This document shows positions 45,078-53,289 of a stretch of 64,000 nucleotides of DNA, in pieces. Below the pieces are notes generated by a model, which was not told the DNA's origin, did no database searches, and saw only the letters and a program-made list of their open reading frames with translations. Numbering within the stretch: the stretch's first letter is position 1; every line of letters starts with the position of its first letter. Source of the stretch: an uncultured Nitrospiraceae bacterium (GTDB lineage Bacteria > Nitrospirota > Nitrospiria > Nitrospirales > Nitrospiraceae); the NCBI GenBank assembly GCA_963730935.1, contig CAVSTP010000002.1, positions 192,001-256,000 of the forward strand, in the 5' to 3' direction. The position numbers and the translations under genes are program-made.

Positions 45078-45107
45078 TTGACAAAGCCGGAAACCGGGTG
45101 CTACCAC
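45078..45107 (+). promoter_or_regulatory. Putative sigma70 promoter for the ubiE-radical SAM pair
   Basis: TTGACA-N18-TACCAC with a TGn extension. Confidence 0.45.
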
Positions 45108-45136
45108 CCATCTCCATGCTACTCATGAGGGAATCC

Positions 45137-45895
45137 GTGACCGATCGCCCGCTACGGGAGATTCCAGCCAGCACGATTTCGACCTGGTCGGGCTCCGCGC
45201 GCGAGCAAGCGGTTCAACGCATGTTCACGGCCATCGCGGGAGTCTACGATCTCAACAACACGCTCCTGAGCTTCGGACTGCATTACCGCTGGAAGAAAAT
45301 TACCGCGGACTATGTACCTTGCGTCGTAGATGGGACCGCGCTGGACGTGGGTGCTGGGACCGCCGATCTTGCGCTGTTTGTGGAGCCTCGCATGGGTGCT
45401 CACGGACGCGTCATCGCCTCCGACCTGAATCATGCCATGCTCGTGGAAGGGTTGAAGAAGATCGGTGGAAAGGGTCTAGGCGGGAAGATCACCTGCTTGC
45501 AGGCCAATGCAGAACATCTGGGATTCGACGACAACACGTTCGACGCCGTCACCACGGGGTTCTGCATGCGCAATGTCGGAAACCTCGCGCAGGCGATCGT
45601 CGAGATTCGTCGCGTCATGAAGCCAGGGGGCACATTCGTCTGCCTCGAATTTTCCCGTCCGGTCTTCGGCTGGCTCCGCGCTCTGTACGATTGGTATTCG
45701 TTCAAGCTGCTTCCGTGGATCGGCACGAAGGTCGCGCGGGACACAACCGGGGTCTATGAATATCTTCCCGCGTCCATCCGCGCGTTTCCCGATCAGGAGC
45801 GGCTCTGCCACATCTTTCGCGACGCGGGCTTTCGCGACGTCTCGTATCGCAATCTGACCGGCGGGATCGTCGCCATTCATCGAGCCGTGAAATGA
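45137..45895 (+). CDS. ubiE: UbiE/MenG-family quinone C-methyltransferase
   Basis: VQRMFTAIAGVYDLNN, LSFGLH, LDVGAGTAD, MRNV, CLEFS, YEYLPASIRAFP, LTGGIVAIH. Start uncertain (45098-45137); GTG 45137 has a GAGGGA RBS. Confidence 0.9.
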   Translation: MTDRPLREIPASTISTWSGSAREQAVQRMFTAIAGVYDLNNTLLSFGLHYRWKKITADYVPCVVDGTALDVGAGTADLALFVEPRMGAHGRVIASDLNHAMLVEGLKKIGGKGLGGKITCLQANAEHLGFDDNTFDAVTTGFCMRNVGNLAQAIVEIRRVMKPGGTFVCLEFSRPVFGWLRALYDWYSFKLLPWIGTKVARDTTGVYEYLPASIRAFPDQERLCHIFRDAGFRDVSYRNLTGGIVAIHRAVK

Positions 45896-47517
45896 ACTCG
45901 GTGCTCTACATCTTTCTCCCCTGCAAGAAGGTCTACCCGATCGGCATCACCTATCTCGCCGATTTCCTTCACCGTCGGAAGCCTGAGATCCGCCAGCGCA
46001 TCCTTGACCTGTCGCTATACCCCGTCTCGCAACGGAGCCGTGCCATCCGAGAGGTCACGGCCGAGTTTCAGCCGGAACTGGTCTGCTTCTCCTGGCGGGA
46101 TATTCAGATCTTCTCGCCCCACGAGGGCGACTCTTCCCTCGAGCACGCGTTCAATTTTTATTTTGCGAGCAATCCCATCAAGCGTATTGCCGCCTCCTTC
46201 GCAGGACTGAAACAGCTGTACCGGTATTACAGCCATATTTATACGATCCTGTCTTATCCCTGGTTGGTGCGAAAAGAGTTTCCCAAGGCCCAGATCATGA
46301 TCGGAGGCGGCGCCTTCACCGCCTTCGCCGATCAGCTCATCGAGAGATTGCCGGAAGGCACCATCGGCCTGCTCGGAGAGGGCGAAGATGCGATTCTGAA
46401 AGTGCTCGAGGGCCGGTCGATCGAGGACGAGCGGTACATCATCAAGGAAGGGAACCAGGTCAAGAAAGGACGGCAGGGCTCGCCGGCGTTGCTCGATGCC
46501 CTCACCGTCGACCTGCCCTACCTGACCACAATTTTTCCGCAATACCGTGAGTACGTCGAGGAATCCATCGGTGTGCAATCGAAACGAGGCTGCCCCTACG
46601 ACTGCGCGTTTTGTCTGTATCCCTATATCGAAGGGAAACGCGTCCGCTACCGCCCTGCCGAAATGGTCGTGCGGGACATCTCCCAGCATTACCATCAATG
46701 GGGGGCCCGTCGATTCTGGTTCACCGATGCACAGTTTATTACCGGCAAGGAAGCCTATCCCCAATGCACCGAGATTCTGGAGCGCATCGTCAGCGAGAAG
46801 CTGGACATCGAATGGTCCGGCTATATCCGGACCTCATTGATCACGCCTGAATTGGCCAGGTTGATGGTGCGGTCGGGCGTCGGCGATTTGGAAGTCGCGA
46901 TCACTTCCGGCTCCCAGGAGGTCCTGAACAACCTCCATATGGGCTTCAAGCTCGAGCGGCTGTATGACGGCTGCCGGTACCTCGCGGAGGCAGGGTTCAG
47001 GGGCAAAGTCATCCTGAATTATTCGCTGAACAGCCCGAAGGAAACGGAAGAAACGCTCTTGCAGAGCGTCGAGTCCTACAAGGTCGTGGCGTCTATCTTG
47101 GGCGAAGAGCGGGTCTTTCCCCTGATGTTCTTTCTCGGAATCCAACCGAATACCGACCTCGAACAGCGCTTGCTCGAAGAGGGGTACCTGTCCGCCGGCT
47201 ATAATCCTCTCATGTTGACACCGACCAGTATCCGGAAATTGCTGTATAATCCGGCCCCCCTCAACACCTTCATCGCAAAGGCCTGCTTGCGCGCCTGGGA
47301 ACGCAAGGAAGGCAGCCGAGACCCACGGAGATGGACCGGCTCACTGTCCCAAACCGCCGGCTCGCAAGATTCTTATGCCGACAAGAGCTTGAGCCGCGGC
47401 ATTGAAGGTAATTCCGGACGGGACGCGCTCCTCTCCTTGGAAGAAATCCTGCGTTCACACCGCCCACCTTCGCCATCCCCTCGGGAGCCAAAAACTCACG
47501 CCACTTCGGCTGGTTAG
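45892..47517 (+). CDS. B12-binding radical SAM protein (resembles cyanobacterial Slr0320 type)
   Basis: N-terminal cobalamin-binding domain (YPIGITYLAD, FSWRDIQIF, GGGAF, GEGE) and KRGCPYDCAFC (CxxxCxxC); ATGA overlap with ubiE. Confidence 0.88.
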   Translation: MNSVLYIFLPCKKVYPIGITYLADFLHRRKPEIRQRILDLSLYPVSQRSRAIREVTAEFQPELVCFSWRDIQIFSPHEGDSSLEHAFNFYFASNPIKRIAASFAGLKQLYRYYSHIYTILSYPWLVRKEFPKAQIMIGGGAFTAFADQLIERLPEGTIGLLGEGEDAILKVLEGRSIEDERYIIKEGNQVKKGRQGSPALLDALTVDLPYLTTIFPQYREYVEESIGVQSKRGCPYDCAFCLYPYIEGKRVRYRPAEMVVRDISQHYHQWGARRFWFTDAQFITGKEAYPQCTEILERIVSEKLDIEWSGYIRTSLITPELARLMVRSGVGDLEVAITSGSQEVLNNLHMGFKLERLYDGCRYLAEAGFRGKVILNYSLNSPKETEETLLQSVESYKVVASILGEERVFPLMFFLGIQPNTDLEQRLLEEGYLSAGYNPLMLTPTSIRKLLYNPAPLNTFIAKACLRAWERKEGSRDPRRWTGSLSQTAGSQDSYADKSLSRGIEGNSGRDALLSLEEILRSHRPPSPSPREPKTHATSAG

Positions 47518-47663
47518 CTCATTTCTTCATTCTTGCAATCCTCTTCTGGCCAGTGCTATCATTCGCGCTCTTTGAAACCTCGGCAAGACGAGAACCATTT
47601 GGTTTTTCAAAAGTTTGCACCAGTCTGCCTTGGTCCGAAGAGCGCCTGGAGGAGGCATCTCTG

Positions 47664-49547
47664 ATGTATAAGACGATTTATATTCCGGTCGATAATTCCG
47701 ACCATTCGAACCAGGCGGTGGACACCGGTGTCCATCTGGCCAAACTCTTCGGCTCGAAGATCGTGGGGAGCCATGTGTACGCAGCCAAAATGCACGACAA
47801 ACGCTTCAAGCAGATGGAGGCGGGCCTTCCCGAGGAATACCACGACGAAAAGGAACTCGACCGGCAACGGCAGATCCACGATTCTCTGATTACCCGCGGG
47901 CTTCAGATCATCACCGACTCCTACCTCGATTACGTCGATAAAAAGTGCAATGAGGCCAACCTTCCGATTGAACGCCGCTCGCTCGAGGGGCGGAATTGGA
48001 AAGTCCTGGCGGATGACATCAATACCAACAGCTACGATTTGGTCATCATGGGCGCCCTGGGTGTGGGCGCCGTAAAAGACAGTGTGATCGGGAGCAATAC
48101 GGAACGGGTCGTTCGTCGGGTACGGAATTCGGACATGCTGATCATCAAGAACATCCAGCCGATCAACGGCGGCAAAATCGTGGTCGCGGTCGACGGCAGT
48201 CCCTACTCGTTCGGCGGCTTGATGACCGGCCTTCAACTCGGCAAGGCGTTGAATATGCCGGTCGAGGCGATTTCGGCCTTCGATCCCTATTTCCATTACG
48301 CGGCCTTCCACAGCATCTCGGGCGTCCTCAATGAAGAAGCAGGGAAGGTCTTCCGGTTCAAAGAGCAGGAAAAGCTGCACGAAGAGATCATCGACAGCGG
48401 CCTGGCCAAGATCTACCAGTCCCATCTGGACATCTCGCGCGAGATCGCTCAAGCGGAGAAGACAGACGTCAAAACCACGTTGCTGGACGGAAAAGCGTTC
48501 GAGAAGATCATTCAATATGTCCGCAAAGACGTACCGGCCCTCCTGATCGTCGGCCGCATCGGCGTCCACAGTGACGAAGACATGGACATCGGCAGTAACA
48601 CGGAAAACCTGCTCCGGAGCGCACCCTGTAACGTGCTGGTGTCCAACCGGAAGTACGTGCCGCCCATCGACACCCAGGCCGAATACACCATTGCCTGGAC
48701 GGAAGAGGCGCTTCGCCGGATGGAGAAAATTCCAGTGTTCGCCCGCGGAGTGGCCAAGACCGCGATTCACCGCTATGCGATCGAAAAAGGGCATACGATC
48801 ATCAGCAACACGGTCGTCGATGCAGCCGTCGGGCACATTCTCCCGAAAGGCGCCATGGACGCCATGCGGGCTTTGGGCGGTAGCCTCGATGCCGCGGGCA
48901 TCGATCGCGACAAAATGCAGGCGGACGACGCCGTCGCGAAGGACCTGATGGGCTCCACGCTGAGCGGCATGATGACGCAGGTCGTCGAAGAGAAGCCCAA
49001 GAACTCAGAGGCGACGCAGGCCTATCTCGACCGTATGAGCCAGAGCTACTACGTGTGCGACGGCTGCGGCTATATCGGCAAGGGGGATACACCGGTCAAG
49101 TGCCCGGTGTGCGGAGCGGAAGGCGCTCGGTTCAAACAAGTTGATAAAAGCATCTTCGAAGCGGCCGCCAAAGCGGAGGGCGAGATCGAAACGGATCTGG
49201 CCTATGACGATGTGCCCATGCAGTGGACGAAGGATGCCAAGGAGGCAATCCGCGCCGTCCCGGCCGGATTTCAACGGCGCCGCGCGAAAGCGAAGATCGA
49301 AAAGAGCGCCCGCAAGCTCGGCATGACGACGATCACGCTGGAGTATGCCGCGCCGATGATCAAGGAAGCGGCCTCCGAAGATTACCAACCGATCTTTGCC
49401 AACAAGGGGGCCGGCACTTCAGCTAGAGGCACAAGCCAAACTGGCCGGGGTTCAGGAAAACGAGACGCAGGCCCCGCAAGACGGCGGCAACGGCCATGCG
49501 GAAGCGCCACCCTACAGCTGGACGGCGGAGGCCCAAGTCAGGCTTGA
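47664..49547 (+). CDS. Tandem universal stress protein domains + PCP_red-like domains + rubredoxin-like domain (frameshifted near 49425)
   Basis: USP1 (IYIPVDNSDHS...GSNTERVVR), USP2 (IVVAVDGS...GSNTENLLRSAPC), WTEEA and WTKDA helical domains, CDGC...CPVC. GGAGGAGG RBS before ATG 47664. Confidence 0.85.
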   Translation: MYKTIYIPVDNSDHSNQAVDTGVHLAKLFGSKIVGSHVYAAKMHDKRFKQMEAGLPEEYHDEKELDRQRQIHDSLITRGLQIITDSYLDYVDKKCNEANLPIERRSLEGRNWKVLADDINTNSYDLVIMGALGVGAVKDSVIGSNTERVVRRVRNSDMLIIKNIQPINGGKIVVAVDGSPYSFGGLMTGLQLGKALNMPVEAISAFDPYFHYAAFHSISGVLNEEAGKVFRFKEQEKLHEEIIDSGLAKIYQSHLDISREIAQAEKTDVKTTLLDGKAFEKIIQYVRKDVPALLIVGRIGVHSDEDMDIGSNTENLLRSAPCNVLVSNRKYVPPIDTQAEYTIAWTEEALRRMEKIPVFARGVAKTAIHRYAIEKGHTIISNTVVDAAVGHILPKGAMDAMRALGGSLDAAGIDRDKMQADDAVAKDLMGSTLSGMMTQVVEEKPKNSEATQAYLDRMSQSYYVCDGCGYIGKGDTPVKCPVCGAEGARFKQVDKSIFEAAAKAEGEIETDLAYDDVPMQWTKDAKEAIRAVPAGFQRRRAKAKIEKSARKLGMTTITLEYAAPMIKEAASEDYQPIFANKGAGTSARGTSQTGRGSGKRDAGPARRRQRPCGSATLQLDGGGPSQA

Positions 49548-49746
49548 GCGGGCACCAGAGGGCTTTATGCGTGACTGTACGAAGGCCCTCATCATCAAGC
49601 ACGCCGACAAGCTCGGCACGATCCACATCACGATTGAAGTAGCCAATGAGGGCATTGAGCAGGCCAAAGGGTACATGGAAGAAGCGATGAAGACGGGCAA
49701 TCTCAAGGACATGATCGCTAGCCTCACCGGCAAAGCCGCCAAATAA
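49426..49746 (+). pseudogene. Out-of-frame C-terminal part of the USP protein (third PCP_red-like domain)
   Basis: The +1 frame reads EAQAKLA...WTAEAQVRLERAPEGFMRDCTKALI... Removing one base at ~49425 gives a continuous ...TSAEAQAKLA... ending 3 nt before the next ATG. Confidence 0.75.
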
Positions 49747-49749
49747 GGA

Positions 49750-51129
49750 ATGAAACCGCTACCGATCTTCAATCCGTCGCTCTCAGGAGCGCTGGGGTCC
49801 CTTCCGCAACAGCTCACGCAGTTCTTCACGCCGCGTCCGCAGAGCGAGGGTCCGTACGACGGCCGGACCGTCGACGACTTCAAGCCCTATCTCGTTGCGC
49901 TGAACCTCACCAAGCGCTGCAACTTGAAATGCGATCACTGCTATCTAGACGCGACCACCAAAGCCGCAGGCGGCGACGACGAGCTCACGACCGAAGAGTG
50001 TTTTCGCCTGATCGACCAGATCGCCGAGGTTAATAAGGGCTGTCTGCTGGTCATCACCGGCGGCGAGCCGCTGGTCCGTCCTGACATTCTCGACATTGCA
50101 CGTTATGCCGTGAAGCTCGGATTCATGGTGGTCTTCGGCACCAACGGCATGTTGATCGATGACCGGATGGCCAAACAGCTGGTCGAGATCGGCGTCATGG
50201 GCGTCGGGATCAGCATCGATTCTCTCGACCCGCAGAAGCACAATGCCTTCCGCGGTGTCCCGGGAGCCTGGGAAGCGGCCGTGGCGGGTATCGAAGCGAG
50301 CAAACGCAACGGACTCCAGTTCCAGGTGCATTTCAGCGCGCAGCCTATGAATTACCAGGAGCTGCCGGCCGTCGTGGAATGGGCCCATGGGCTCGGCGCC
50401 CGCGTCCTGAACGTGTTCTTCATGGTGTGCACGGGTCGCGGCGAGGAACTCACGGACATCACGCCGGCCCAGTACGAAGAAGTCCTCGGCTTCTTGGTGA
50501 AGTGCCAGGACAACTATCAAGGCATGCTGATTCGGGCCCGCTGCGCTCCGCACTTCAAGCGGCTGGCCTATGAAAAAGACCCCAACTCACCGATCACCAA
50601 AGCAACCGGCTACATGGGCGGCGGCTGCCTCGCCGGAACGAACTATGCCCGCGTGACGCCGAACGGCGAATTGACGCCTTGCCCCTACATGCCGCTTTCG
50701 GCCGGGAATGTTCGCGAGAAAAGCTTTGTGGACCTCTGGGAAAAGTCCGACATCTTCAATTCCTTTCGTTACCCTCAACTCAAAGGCAAATGCGGCGACT
50801 GTGAATACTCGGAGATCTGCGGGGGCTGCCGCGCCCGTCCGTATGTGGATCATGGCGACTGGCTGGACGAAGACCAGTGGTGCCTCTACACGCCCAAGGG
50901 CGGGGAGAAGATCAAGGTCGCGTTCAATGTCGAGGAAGCGTCCGTCGTGCAGTGGGACGACGCCGCGTCGTTACGGTTGAGCCGTATTCCCTACTTTCTC
51001 CGCGCAATGGTCAAGAAAGGGGTGGAGAAACACGCGCGGGAGAACGGCATCACGACCGTGACGATCGAGCTTATGGAAGAACTCCGGAAGAAACGCTTCG
51101 GCAACGACGCACCGGTATTCAAGTTCTGA
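49750..51129 (+). CDS. Radical SAM/SPASM protein (AhbD/NirJ-like) with a C-terminal PCP_red-like domain
   Basis: CNLKCDHC, TGGEPL, SPASM motifs GCLAG...PCPY...KCGDCEYSEICGGCRAR, and C-terminal WDDAASLRLSRIPYFLRAMVKKGVEKHA. Confidence 0.88.
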   Translation: MKPLPIFNPSLSGALGSLPQQLTQFFTPRPQSEGPYDGRTVDDFKPYLVALNLTKRCNLKCDHCYLDATTKAAGGDDELTTEECFRLIDQIAEVNKGCLLVITGGEPLVRPDILDIARYAVKLGFMVVFGTNGMLIDDRMAKQLVEIGVMGVGISIDSLDPQKHNAFRGVPGAWEAAVAGIEASKRNGLQFQVHFSAQPMNYQELPAVVEWAHGLGARVLNVFFMVCTGRGEELTDITPAQYEEVLGFLVKCQDNYQGMLIRARCAPHFKRLAYEKDPNSPITKATGYMGGGCLAGTNYARVTPNGELTPCPYMPLSAGNVREKSFVDLWEKSDIFNSFRYPQLKGKCGDCEYSEICGGCRARPYVDHGDWLDEDQWCLYTPKGGEKIKVAFNVEEASVVQWDDAASLRLSRIPYFLRAMVKKGVEKHARENGITTVTIELMEELRKKRFGNDAPVFKF

Positions 51130-51152
51130 GGCTCGAGGTCTGAGCTCCGCTG

Positions 51153-51662
51153 ATGGACGCACTTCAAAGCATCATCACCGACCTCAATACGCTGATTCCC
51201 ATCGTCAATCACTGGTTCCATCTCCTCTCCGCGGTGATCTGGATCGGCGGCCTGGCCTTTCTGGTCATGGCGGTCACGCCAGGCCTGCAGAAAGCGGTTG
51301 CCCGGGAACAGATCAAGCCGATTACGGACGTCTTTTATCAACACTACAAGAAAGTGGCGGGCATTTTGCTCGTCATTCTGTTGTTTACCGGCGGAATCAA
51401 TCTCCACTACGTCAACCAGGTGCTGACCTCACAGACCGGTTCAGGCGTCCAGCACCACGCCAAATACCTCACGGTCTTTTTTATCAAGCTCTTCCTCGTA
51501 CTCTGCCTCGTGACCCTTTTCCTGTATACGGTGATTTTCAAAGCCGATGACGAGGCTGAAGAAGGCGAATCCTACGAGGTGATCCCGTTCCAACGTGCAG
51601 CGCTCTGGATGGGGTTTTTCATTATCCTGTGTGCGGCTGCCATGAAGCACTTACATCAATAG
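51153..51662 (+). CDS. CopD/DUF4149-like four-TM membrane protein
   Basis: HWFHLLSAVIWIGGLAFL, LLFTGG and FFIKL are CopD-like motifs; His residues near helix ends. Confidence 0.7.
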   Translation: MDALQSIITDLNTLIPIVNHWFHLLSAVIWIGGLAFLVMAVTPGLQKAVAREQIKPITDVFYQHYKKVAGILLVILLFTGGINLHYVNQVLTSQTGSGVQHHAKYLTVFFIKLFLVLCLVTLFLYTVIFKADDEAEEGESYEVIPFQRAALWMGFFIILCAAAMKHLHQ

Positions 51663-52524: not shown

Positions 52525-53289
52525 TCAGCGGGGGTTGGGAGGAGTGGAGAATGCCCGTTTGAAGACACCGCGAATGCCGAAATAGGCGAAGGAGTCTTTG
52601 AGGTTGGAATACAATCGCTTGATGGAACCCATCTCGGGATTGGTCACGTACTCCATCGTCAATGCGATCCGCTCCTCTCCCTGTCCCAGCGGCGTCACTG
52701 CGTGCCACAGTTTGTCGCCGTTGAAGATCACCATGTCGCCGGGCTCCGTGACTAATTCCAACGTTCGTGGCGTCTTACCGGGAACATCCTTGAACAGCTC
52801 GCAGACCAGCTTGCACTGCGTCGATCTGTCGACCAATCCCATCAGAATCGTATAGCGGGCCCCTTTGTAATAGCTGGTGTCGTAGTGAAATCCGATATGA
52901 TCACCGGCCTCCGTGTAATAGTACAGGGCGCACGAGTGAGGATCGTTGTCCGGACAGAGCATGAGCTTGGCGTCGGTGAGCCGGCTGAGAAACGCCAAAA
53001 ACGCCGGTGAGCGATACAGATCAAGAAAGAGCGGGGCCTGTTCCTGCACCGTGTAGTAGCTCACGCTTCCGCCCTTCTTGTGGCCAGGAATGTAATTGCG
53101 ATTCAGCTGGTGTTTGACTCCCTGAGCCTGAGGCACGAGCGTCGCCTCGACGAACTCCCGCGGGAGAAACTGGGGGATGACGATGAACTCGTTCTGTTCC
53201 CAATAGTCGCGACGTACTCGATCAACGTTCAATCTGGCAATAGCCTGTTCGGTCGCTTCTGCGACTGAGCCCAAGACTGCTGTACTCAT
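52525..53289 (-). CDS. 2OG-Fe(II) oxygenase family protein
   Basis: HxD (GFHYD), distal His (WHAV), and ERIAL Arg for 2OG binding. Confidence 0.85.
   Translation of the reverse strand: MSTAVLGSVAEATEQAIARLNVDRVRRDYWEQNEFIVIPQFLPREFVEATLVPQAQGVKHQLNRNYIPGHKKGGSVSYYTVQEQAPLFLDLYRSPAFLAFLSRLTDAKLMLCPDNDPHSCALYYYTEAGDHIGFHYDTSYYKGARYTILMGLVDRSTQCKLVCELFKDVPGKTPRTLELVTEPGDMVIFNGDKLWHAVTPLGQGEERIALTMEYVTNPEMGSIKRLYSNLKDSFAYFGIRGVFKRAFSTPPNPR

Follow-up and report, generated by a model that had tools for sequence, protein, structure and literature searches.

A tandem-USP and radical SAM/SPASM gene module that co-occurs with the OR-N bd-like oxidases

The window analysed here, a stretch of 64,000 nucleotides from an uncultured Nitrospiraceae bacterium (GCA_963730935.1, contig CAVSTP010000002.1, positions 192,001 to 256,000), contains three genes on the same (+) strand: a tandem universal stress protein (USP) with PCP_red and rubredoxin-like additions (47664-49746), a radical SAM/SPASM enzyme with a C-terminal PCP_red domain (49750-51129) and a small membrane protein (51153-51662). 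The conserved core, hereinafter the module, is the pair of tandem-USP and radical SAM/SPASM-PCP_red proteins, to which the rubredoxin-like site and the extra PCP_red copies are optional. The module is real, built from known families and undescribed in the literature searched, a full-text search (supplements and subscription papers aside) having returned no description of it. We read it as a dedicated cofactor-maturation module for a respiratory enzyme. A functional link to the OR-N family of bd-like oxidases is, in our judgment, highly probable. We lean, by a modest degree, towards the pair making or delivering a haem cofactor for these oxidases, because of the family to which the enzyme belongs and the presence of HemY in the cluster. 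A preliminary description of the locus, made from the sequence alone, had proposed a role in cofactor maturation for the respiratory chain; this is supported and is now tied to one oxidase by co-occurrence.

Co-occurrence with the OR-N bd-like oxidases

Nitrospira are the most widespread nitrite oxidisers and, to our knowledge, are without a canonical haem-copper oxidase. The terminal oxidase proposed for them is a bd-like protein of the OR-N kind, with an oxygen affinity yet to be determined (PMC6606698, PMC12342949). It belongs to the OR-N family of bd-like oxidases, with its OR-N1 and OR-N2 groups (10.1101/2021.01.16.426971). The bd-like cluster has been proposed as the terminal oxidase of the Nitrospirales (PMC12342949), and one such cluster is among the most-transcribed genes of N. 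moscoviensis (PMC6606698). The oxidase cluster found here matches the described TO_1 unit, in which a bd-like oxidase is joined by two cytochromes c and one periplasmic cytochrome b (10.1101/2021.11.15.468770). This co-occurring client, with its bd-like subunit, two cytochromes c and periplasmic cytochrome b/alt-NxrC, has several descriptions, the accessible parts of which name neither maturation genes nor a cofactor analysis for OR-N (10.1101/2021.01.16.426971, 10.1101/2021.11.15.468770, PMC6606698, PMC12342949).

We profiled one draw of 151 Nitrospirota genomes, counting scores over 300 bits (our own threshold) as the enzyme clade and using as oxidase query a bd-like subunit from a linked cluster, which was not typed to an OR-N subfamily by the published classifier. 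The USP protein occurs in 49 genomes, the enzyme clade in 51, both in 48 and either in 52. All 50 genomes with the OR-N subunit fall within these 52 module carriers, and 99 genomes have neither; the two that are module-positive and oxidase-negative are fragmented drafts. The agreement extends beyond the two Nitrospira-like families, outside which the overlap is 18 of 20, and even the families with a patchy distribution agree genome by genome (f11, 3 of 33; f10, 1 of 7; f22, 1 of 2). Four genomes (G102, G105, G123 and G156) carry the module and the oxidase at separate loci. A comparable picture emerges from the gammaproteobacterial order of G201 (251 genomes), where the USP protein is present in 38 genomes and the oxidase in 36, all of them within the 38 and mostly only a few kb from it. 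Among 27 further module genomes reached via named loci, an oxidase match at E <= 1e-15 was recovered in 26, three of these matches being weak (E about 1e-19 to 1e-21); the single exception, G195, has a broken, decayed-looking cassette.

Bd-like neighbours occur at 11 of 79 loci when G198 (L157), a genome on which no conclusion here depends, is left out. In L207 (G174:C8:8000-26000), the enzyme, the USP protein, the oxidase and two cytochromes c form a same-strand run followed by a molybdoenzyme set. The genes downstream in this locus resemble those for a TorD chaperone and for a molybdoenzyme of the NxrABC/NarGH type, as recognised from their sequences. In a separate locus, L211 (G123:C1:428000-446000), the bd-like cluster adjoins nosD/nosF/nosY-like genes, recognised in the same way, which suggests that OR-N may serve more than oxygen reduction.

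Architecture and conservation of the module

The radical SAM/SPASM enzyme (49750..51129, +; 459 aa) combines Radical_SAM, SPASM and PCP_red domains by Pfam, and a paralogue of AhbD is the best description that its profile scores, tree position and motifs allow. It has the CX3CX2C motif (49918-49941) and a full eight-cysteine SPASM motif spanning C265-C378 (50542-50883). These agree with the AhbD pattern of CX3CX2C plus CX20-33CX17CX36-37CX2CX5CX2CX17-35C, the spacing being that of the full motif described for M. barkeri AhbD (PMC10452713), and none of the radical SAM or SPASM cysteines varies across 40 sequences. Its best-scoring families are NirJ2 (TIGR04055; 324 bits against a cut-off of 500) and AhbD (TIGR04545; 314.6 bits against 500), and it falls below both, as it does for AhbC (171/650 bits) and NirJ (174/515 bits). 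AhbD genes of related genomes, in contrast, reach 511-531 bits. In five anaerobe-type genomes, the USP-linked enzyme (295-320 bits) is accompanied by a better-scoring AhbD candidate (438-531 bits), and genomes with an AhbD of 525-531 bits also keep the USP-linked enzyme. In a quick tree of 66 rows, whose AhbD references were assigned by hidden Markov models rather than by assay, the 44 USP-linked proteins form one clade (SH-aLRT 94, just under the 95 mark), sister to AhbD and TIGR04053-type rows. The enzyme is 35-41% identical to ten AhbD-type proteins, with which its clade has 51 conserved positions in common; it is set apart by the C-terminal PCP_red, the USP partner and clade-specific residues (N52, Y65 and C227 in place of E, R and P, respectively). 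The preliminary description had left room for a plain AhbD acting independently of its neighbours. The low score, the separate clade and the coexistence with AhbD support an enzyme that is not plain AhbD, and, with the coexistence extending to other decarboxylases, a housekeeping haem b synthase is therefore unlikely. As a separate observation, an AhbD-type protein of G036 (L168:1438-2835; 489 bits), which falls outside the USP-linked clade, has a PCP_red domain of its own.

A parallel is offered by the dedicated haem-tailoring genes of respiratory enzymes, such as NirJ in haem d1 synthesis for NirS, a same-family radical SAM/SPASM enzyme inherited with one terminal reductase (PMC10548856). 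NirJ differs from the enzyme of the window in the low NirJ score noted above, in the client, here the OR-N oxidase, and in the USP and PCP_red partners. Furthermore, the AhbAB/NirDLGH-type domain (PF17805) has no match in the window's genome, so no supply of didecarboxysirohaem was found there.

The partner of the enzyme is a tandem USP, and its close homologues go by the name 'universal stress protein [Nitrospira]'. Pfam finds two Usp domains, two PCP_red domains (E 1.4e-23) and RUBY_RBDX in its first open reading frame. The two USP domains (47664..48647, +) were modelled by AlphaFold with a pLDDT of 96.5 and adopt a tandem-USP fold, matching Rv2623 and TTHA0350 (Foldseek E 1e-17 to 1e-13) at about 16% identity. 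Both domains have G-x2-G-x9-GS (48051..48095 and 48552..48596, both +), a predicted ATP site conforming to G-x2-G-x9-G(S/T), which we take to be the definition of the USP ATP motif; G130, G133 and G143 of the first are invariant, and G297, G300 and G310 of the second nearly so. The protein shares its fold and two ATP motifs with the tandem USPs Rv2623, TTHA0350 and UspE. Unlike them, it has a long helical insert in each domain with a pair of histidines, PCP_red and rubredoxin tails, and very high conservation. The pairs, H44/H72 and H211/H239, are 28 residues apart, one pair per USP half; with the further conserved H37 and H302, these histidines are kept in 98-100% of the aligned rows (101 sequences). 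The USP core has a median identity of 94% over 33 Nitrospira-type loci, above that of its neighbours. The tail is variable, with zero to six PCP_red copies among 150 representatives, many of them fragments. The rubredoxin-like CxxC-x11-CPxC site (49056..49112, +), identified by motif and RUBY_RBDX match, has its pattern in only 16 of these 150, many again being fragments. The electron-donor role that the preliminary description had offered is accordingly weak, the motif being missing from most homologues.

The same description had placed four PCP_red modules in a three-gene, same-strand locus, and we recovered them with starts at exactly 48696, 49224, 49519 and 50953; its PCP_red, Usp, rubredoxin and SPASM assignments were likewise borne out by profile searches. 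Against the Pfam cut-off for PCP_red (PF08369) of 32.5 bits, three of the four copies (all +) score above: copy 1 (48696..48827; 54 bits), copy 2 (49224..49343; 42 bits) and copy 4, C-terminal on the enzyme (50953..51087; 56-60.5 bits). Copy 3 (49519..49644) reaches about 28.6 bits (E 2.2e-6 to 7e-6). The domain is that of the C-terminus of the dark protochlorophyllide reductase subunits BchB/ChlB and of the stand-alone Asr4154, as judged by sequence matches to 2xdq_B, 2kru and 2l09. In contrast to those, the window's genome has 12 copies spread over five non-photosynthetic proteins, so the four copies at the locus stand but the original tally of four in two proteins does not. The same 12 domains, again over five proteins, are present in genome G022. 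One of the five, a zinc-ribbon protein with two PCP_red domains, is encoded inside the bd-like oxidase cluster (G000:C4:1586749-1587240). We also noticed a second protein of this architecture after an Mrp ATPase in a sulphate-assimilation region (G000:C2:382959-384660) and a protein of four PCP_red domains (G000:C2:368031-369032). The earlier idea that PCP_red-to-PCP_red docking is the core mechanism has to be given up: several USP partners have no PCP_red at all, and assembly of this kind is not essential because G174 keeps the USP/enzyme pair with a single PCP_red in its entire genome. No function for PCP_red was found in the literature searched.

The third copy is out of frame in the USP gene as assembled, which stops at 49547, and alignment with relatives places an extra, frame-shifting base near 49423 (+). 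A single USP reading frame of 678-703 aa is present in 17 of 19 relatives (of the remaining two, a contig end truncates one and the other was left unparsed), and the base is absent from the contigs of four out of four DNA runs (four studies) and from the single RNA-run contig that spans the position. Therefore, the base is probably an assembly error. The three-PCP_red protein previously described is then probably the natural form, the gene having its true extent at 47664..49746 (+; ~693 aa in relatives). A mutation private to the strain may also account for the base, though less well. We ruled out a programmed frameshift, as the DNA runs are without the base. A paralogue of the bd-like oxidase subunit is spread over three frames (G000:C4:1583732-1585624), possibly through further errors of this kind.

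Across genomes, the enzyme is present in 66 of 80 named USP loci, several of the other 14 ending at a contig edge, and the module is found in Pseudomonadota, Rokubacteria, Myxococcota and others, confirming the synteny that had been anticipated. The fixed three-gene system did not survive, since the membrane gene is present in 45 of the 80 loci, every one Nitrospira-type or other Nitrospirota, and elsewhere the third slot is taken by HemY (7 loci), by Mrp (7 loci, a zinc-ribbon PCP_red protein accompanying it in three) or by a PNPOx-like protein. HemY thus adjoins the module in 7 of the 80 loci, the window's locus not being among them. The PNPOx-like family follows the enzyme at L047:5263-5934, L049:10560-11288 and L136:7045-7977, is fused to the USP in several representatives (P0142, P0150, P0165, P0168, P0197) and is possibly a flavin- or haem-binding partner; one query found no such partner in the window's genome.

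The membrane protein itself (51153..51662, +) is a four-helix, probably membrane-embedded member of the DUF4149/CopD clan with invariant H23, W30 and K112. Its Pfam matches are weak ones to DUF4149/CopD only, its scores of 18.9 against 32.1 and 34.7 against 195 amount to a clan-level likeness to CopD copper importers, and a fold search gave no structural match at E <= 0.001. Its invariant His/Lys pair resembles what we take to be the haem ligands of HemJ. However, HemJ (PF03653) is not among the 25 families listed of the 46 matched by 18 members, nor does it have a match in the window's genome. We therefore rejected both HemJ and CopD as its identity for want of a family-level match.

The remaining features of the locus are minor. 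The genes are separated by 3 bases (USP/radical SAM) and 23 bases (radical SAM/membrane protein). A promoter-like site with a TG extension precedes the USP gene (47533..47562, +) and is a hint only, as promoter and terminator scans gave chance-level counts (2 promoter-like sites found against 2.7 expected). Contigs from four RNA runs span portions of the genes, some of them extending across gene borders, though such contigs cannot show transcription, its level or a single transcript. Downstream, on the (-) strand, lies a 2OG-Fe(II) oxygenase gene (52525-53289) with a HalD Pfam match above cut-off and a weak BesD match. In family f2 (L050, L051; G022, G167), the operon diverges from metK-/ahcY-like genes for SAM synthesis and recycling, as recognised from sequence.

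Haem context and competing explanations

The haem routes of module-bearing genomes bear directly on what the enzyme does. Twenty of the 21 Nitrospirota module genomes tested hold another candidate decarboxylase (ChdC-like in 8, HemF in 1, HemN in 3, AhbD-type in 8), with G041 having a partial match only. As other decarboxylases are present across the haem routes, the module is an add-on to all three. The window's genome has hemE-hemH-hemY and a ChdC-like gene, with no matches to AhbAB, HemN or HemF. We considered the enzyme as the sole decarboxylase in G125 and G183 and ruled this out, both having HemF. HemY is in the module cluster in all five HemN genomes tested, being a second copy in two, although these five were hand-picked, three of them after HemY had been seen there. 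Four single-contig Nitrospira-type genomes (G009, G022, G025 and G167; L191-L194) have hemE directly followed by hemY and keep the ChdC-like gene, and in these no ferrochelatase match was found. They share with the window's genome (G000:C2:599640-600134) a CbiX/CfbA-like protein of 165-175 aa, a candidate alternative coproporphyrin chelatase by its sequence. The hemH-less state of these four complete genomes had raised the USP protein as the missing ferrochelatase; we dropped this, since HemH is present in 34 of 46 module genomes and the four tested genomes carry the small CbiX-like protein.

Under the haem-cofactor reading, the enzyme, with three [4Fe-4S] clusters and SAM, would act on iron-coproporphyrin or on haem side chains, by analogy with AhbD, AhbC and NirJ, and its product would be haem b for a dedicated pool or else a modified haem. 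The tandem USP might then bind ATP, hold the haem or a metal through its two histidine pairs and hand it to the membrane oxidase. PCP_red could act as a small lid or contact domain, of which the enzyme requires one copy and some lineages have multiplied the number, and might link in the Mrp and zinc-ribbon partners as possible suppliers of Fe-S clusters; by analogy with BchL, it may conceivably dock on an Mrp ATPase. The third gene would be a lineage-specific helper: the His/Lys four-helix membrane protein in Nitrospira, and in HemN-using hosts HemY, which would supply coproporphyrin. In Nitrospira and in hosts with the sirohaem route, coproporphyrin would come from the normal pathway, which fits a substrate derived from coprohaem. 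A bolder version, to which we give only a low probability as a single joint claim, is that an undescribed haem serves the OR-N oxidases, the presumed terminal oxidase of Nitrospira among them. It would be made from coprohaem by the enzyme and loaded into the membrane complex by the USP, an ATP-driven, His-lined chaperone in this view, while PCP_red would be an address tag in common with proteins that deliver Fe-S clusters.

Several observations weigh against the link to OR-N or against its interpretation in terms of haem. The window itself has no oxidase gene adjacent to the module, and the module occurs without an oxidase match in G031 (92% complete, 470 contigs), G047 (95%), G317 and G195. 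Much of the co-occurrence stems from a single, physically linked cassette and from genomes that are kin, which makes the counts non-independent, and hence we attach no probability to them. Chloroflexota, Binatus and one Entotheonella genome have the USP protein without a match to the enzyme clade, and in Rokubacteria and Entotheonella the USP gene adjoins haem-copper oxidase genes. At 16 positions that its own clade conserves, the enzyme departs from AhbD, so its substrate may not be a tetrapyrrole. The ChdC-like gene of the window's genome scores under both NCBIfam cut-offs. In three of the five HemN genomes, the HemY of the cluster is the only porphyrinogen oxidase found and may be a housekeeping enzyme, which weakens its role in coproporphyrin supply; no coproporphyrin chelatase was identified in those three genomes. 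Finally, a related enzyme of the bd family is reported to work with b haems alone, such that a special haem is not required in principle (10.1101/2021.01.16.426971).

The simplest alternative is that the enzyme is an ordinary oxygen-independent coprohaem decarboxylase (AhbD/ChdA), backing up ChdC at low oxygen and serving all haem proteins, with neighbours that are incidental or regulatory. The full AhbD cysteine motif and the availability of coprohaem in the window's genome are consistent with it, as are the reported occurrences of ahbD beside hemY/hemH/hemQ gene sets (PMC10548856). We nevertheless consider it unlikely, given the 315 bits against a cut-off of 500, the retention of the enzyme both where an AhbD of 525-531 bits is present and in HemN genomes already equipped with an anaerobic route, and a distribution that tracks the oxidase rather than the haem pathway.

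A protein substrate would instead make the enzyme a SPASM-type maturase of the OR-N subunit or of one of its cytochromes, introducing for example a cross-link, with the USP as an ATP-binding scaffold. Most characterised SPASM enzymes do modify peptides (PMC10452713), the solved-structure relatives by sequence include PqqE and SkfB, clade-specific residues depart from AhbD, and so close an association with a single oxidase family accords with a dedicated maturase. Yet tetrapyrrole enzymes make up both the nearest families and the sister clade, HemY turns up repeatedly in the cluster and the Pfam scan of the enzyme revealed no leader-binding domain, leaving this proposal quite improbable to our minds. 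It is also rather improbable that the module is a sensor or chaperone, with the USP reading ATP, metal or redox state to control the assembly or the activity of the oxidase and the radical SAM protein carrying haem unchanged. In its favour are the intact ATP motifs, the presence of the USP next to bd-like genes in Chloroflexota and Binatus where the enzyme is missing, the CRP/FNR-type gene flanking the module cluster in L081 and the four UspA proteins that rise at low oxygen in N. marina, a counterpart of the window's gene among them not being established (PMC8115632). Nevertheless, the invariance of the radical SAM and SPASM cysteines is as expected of a catalyst, and sensing offers no ready explanation for the pairing with HemY.

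The upstream neighbourhood (45098-47517), with mpqE (above the NF052510 cut-off) and then an slr0320-like B12 radical SAM gene (451 of 775 bits) of a kind listed in a Leptospirillum cluster in the methyl-plastoquinone paper (10.1101/2024.07.27.605408), raises a role in methyl-plastoquinone synthesis, which we regard as highly improbable: although mpqE precedes the module, in the same orientation, at 40 of 80 loci, the two genes are adjacent only in part of the Nitrospirales and the adjacency is lost in family f2, other Nitrospirota and all other phyla, a 146-base gap with the promoter-like site intervenes, and the quinone is reported in that paper only from aerobic Nitrospirota, a confinement that the module, found in many phyla, does not share.

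Implications for Nitrospira and the OR-N oxidases

If the haem-cofactor reading is true, the module names genes needed for the active expression of OR-N and points to its cofactor, and a question that dates from the first Nitrospira genome can be put to the test. The module would likewise furnish a function for PCP_red outside photosynthesis and for a USP family annotated only as a 'stress protein'. Should the more tentative proposal of an undescribed haem also hold, it would mean a new haem, a new maturation pathway for an oxidase and a haem-chaperone role for the USP fold. In either case, the module would offer a route into the study of the enzyme presumed to reduce oxygen in a major nitrifier.

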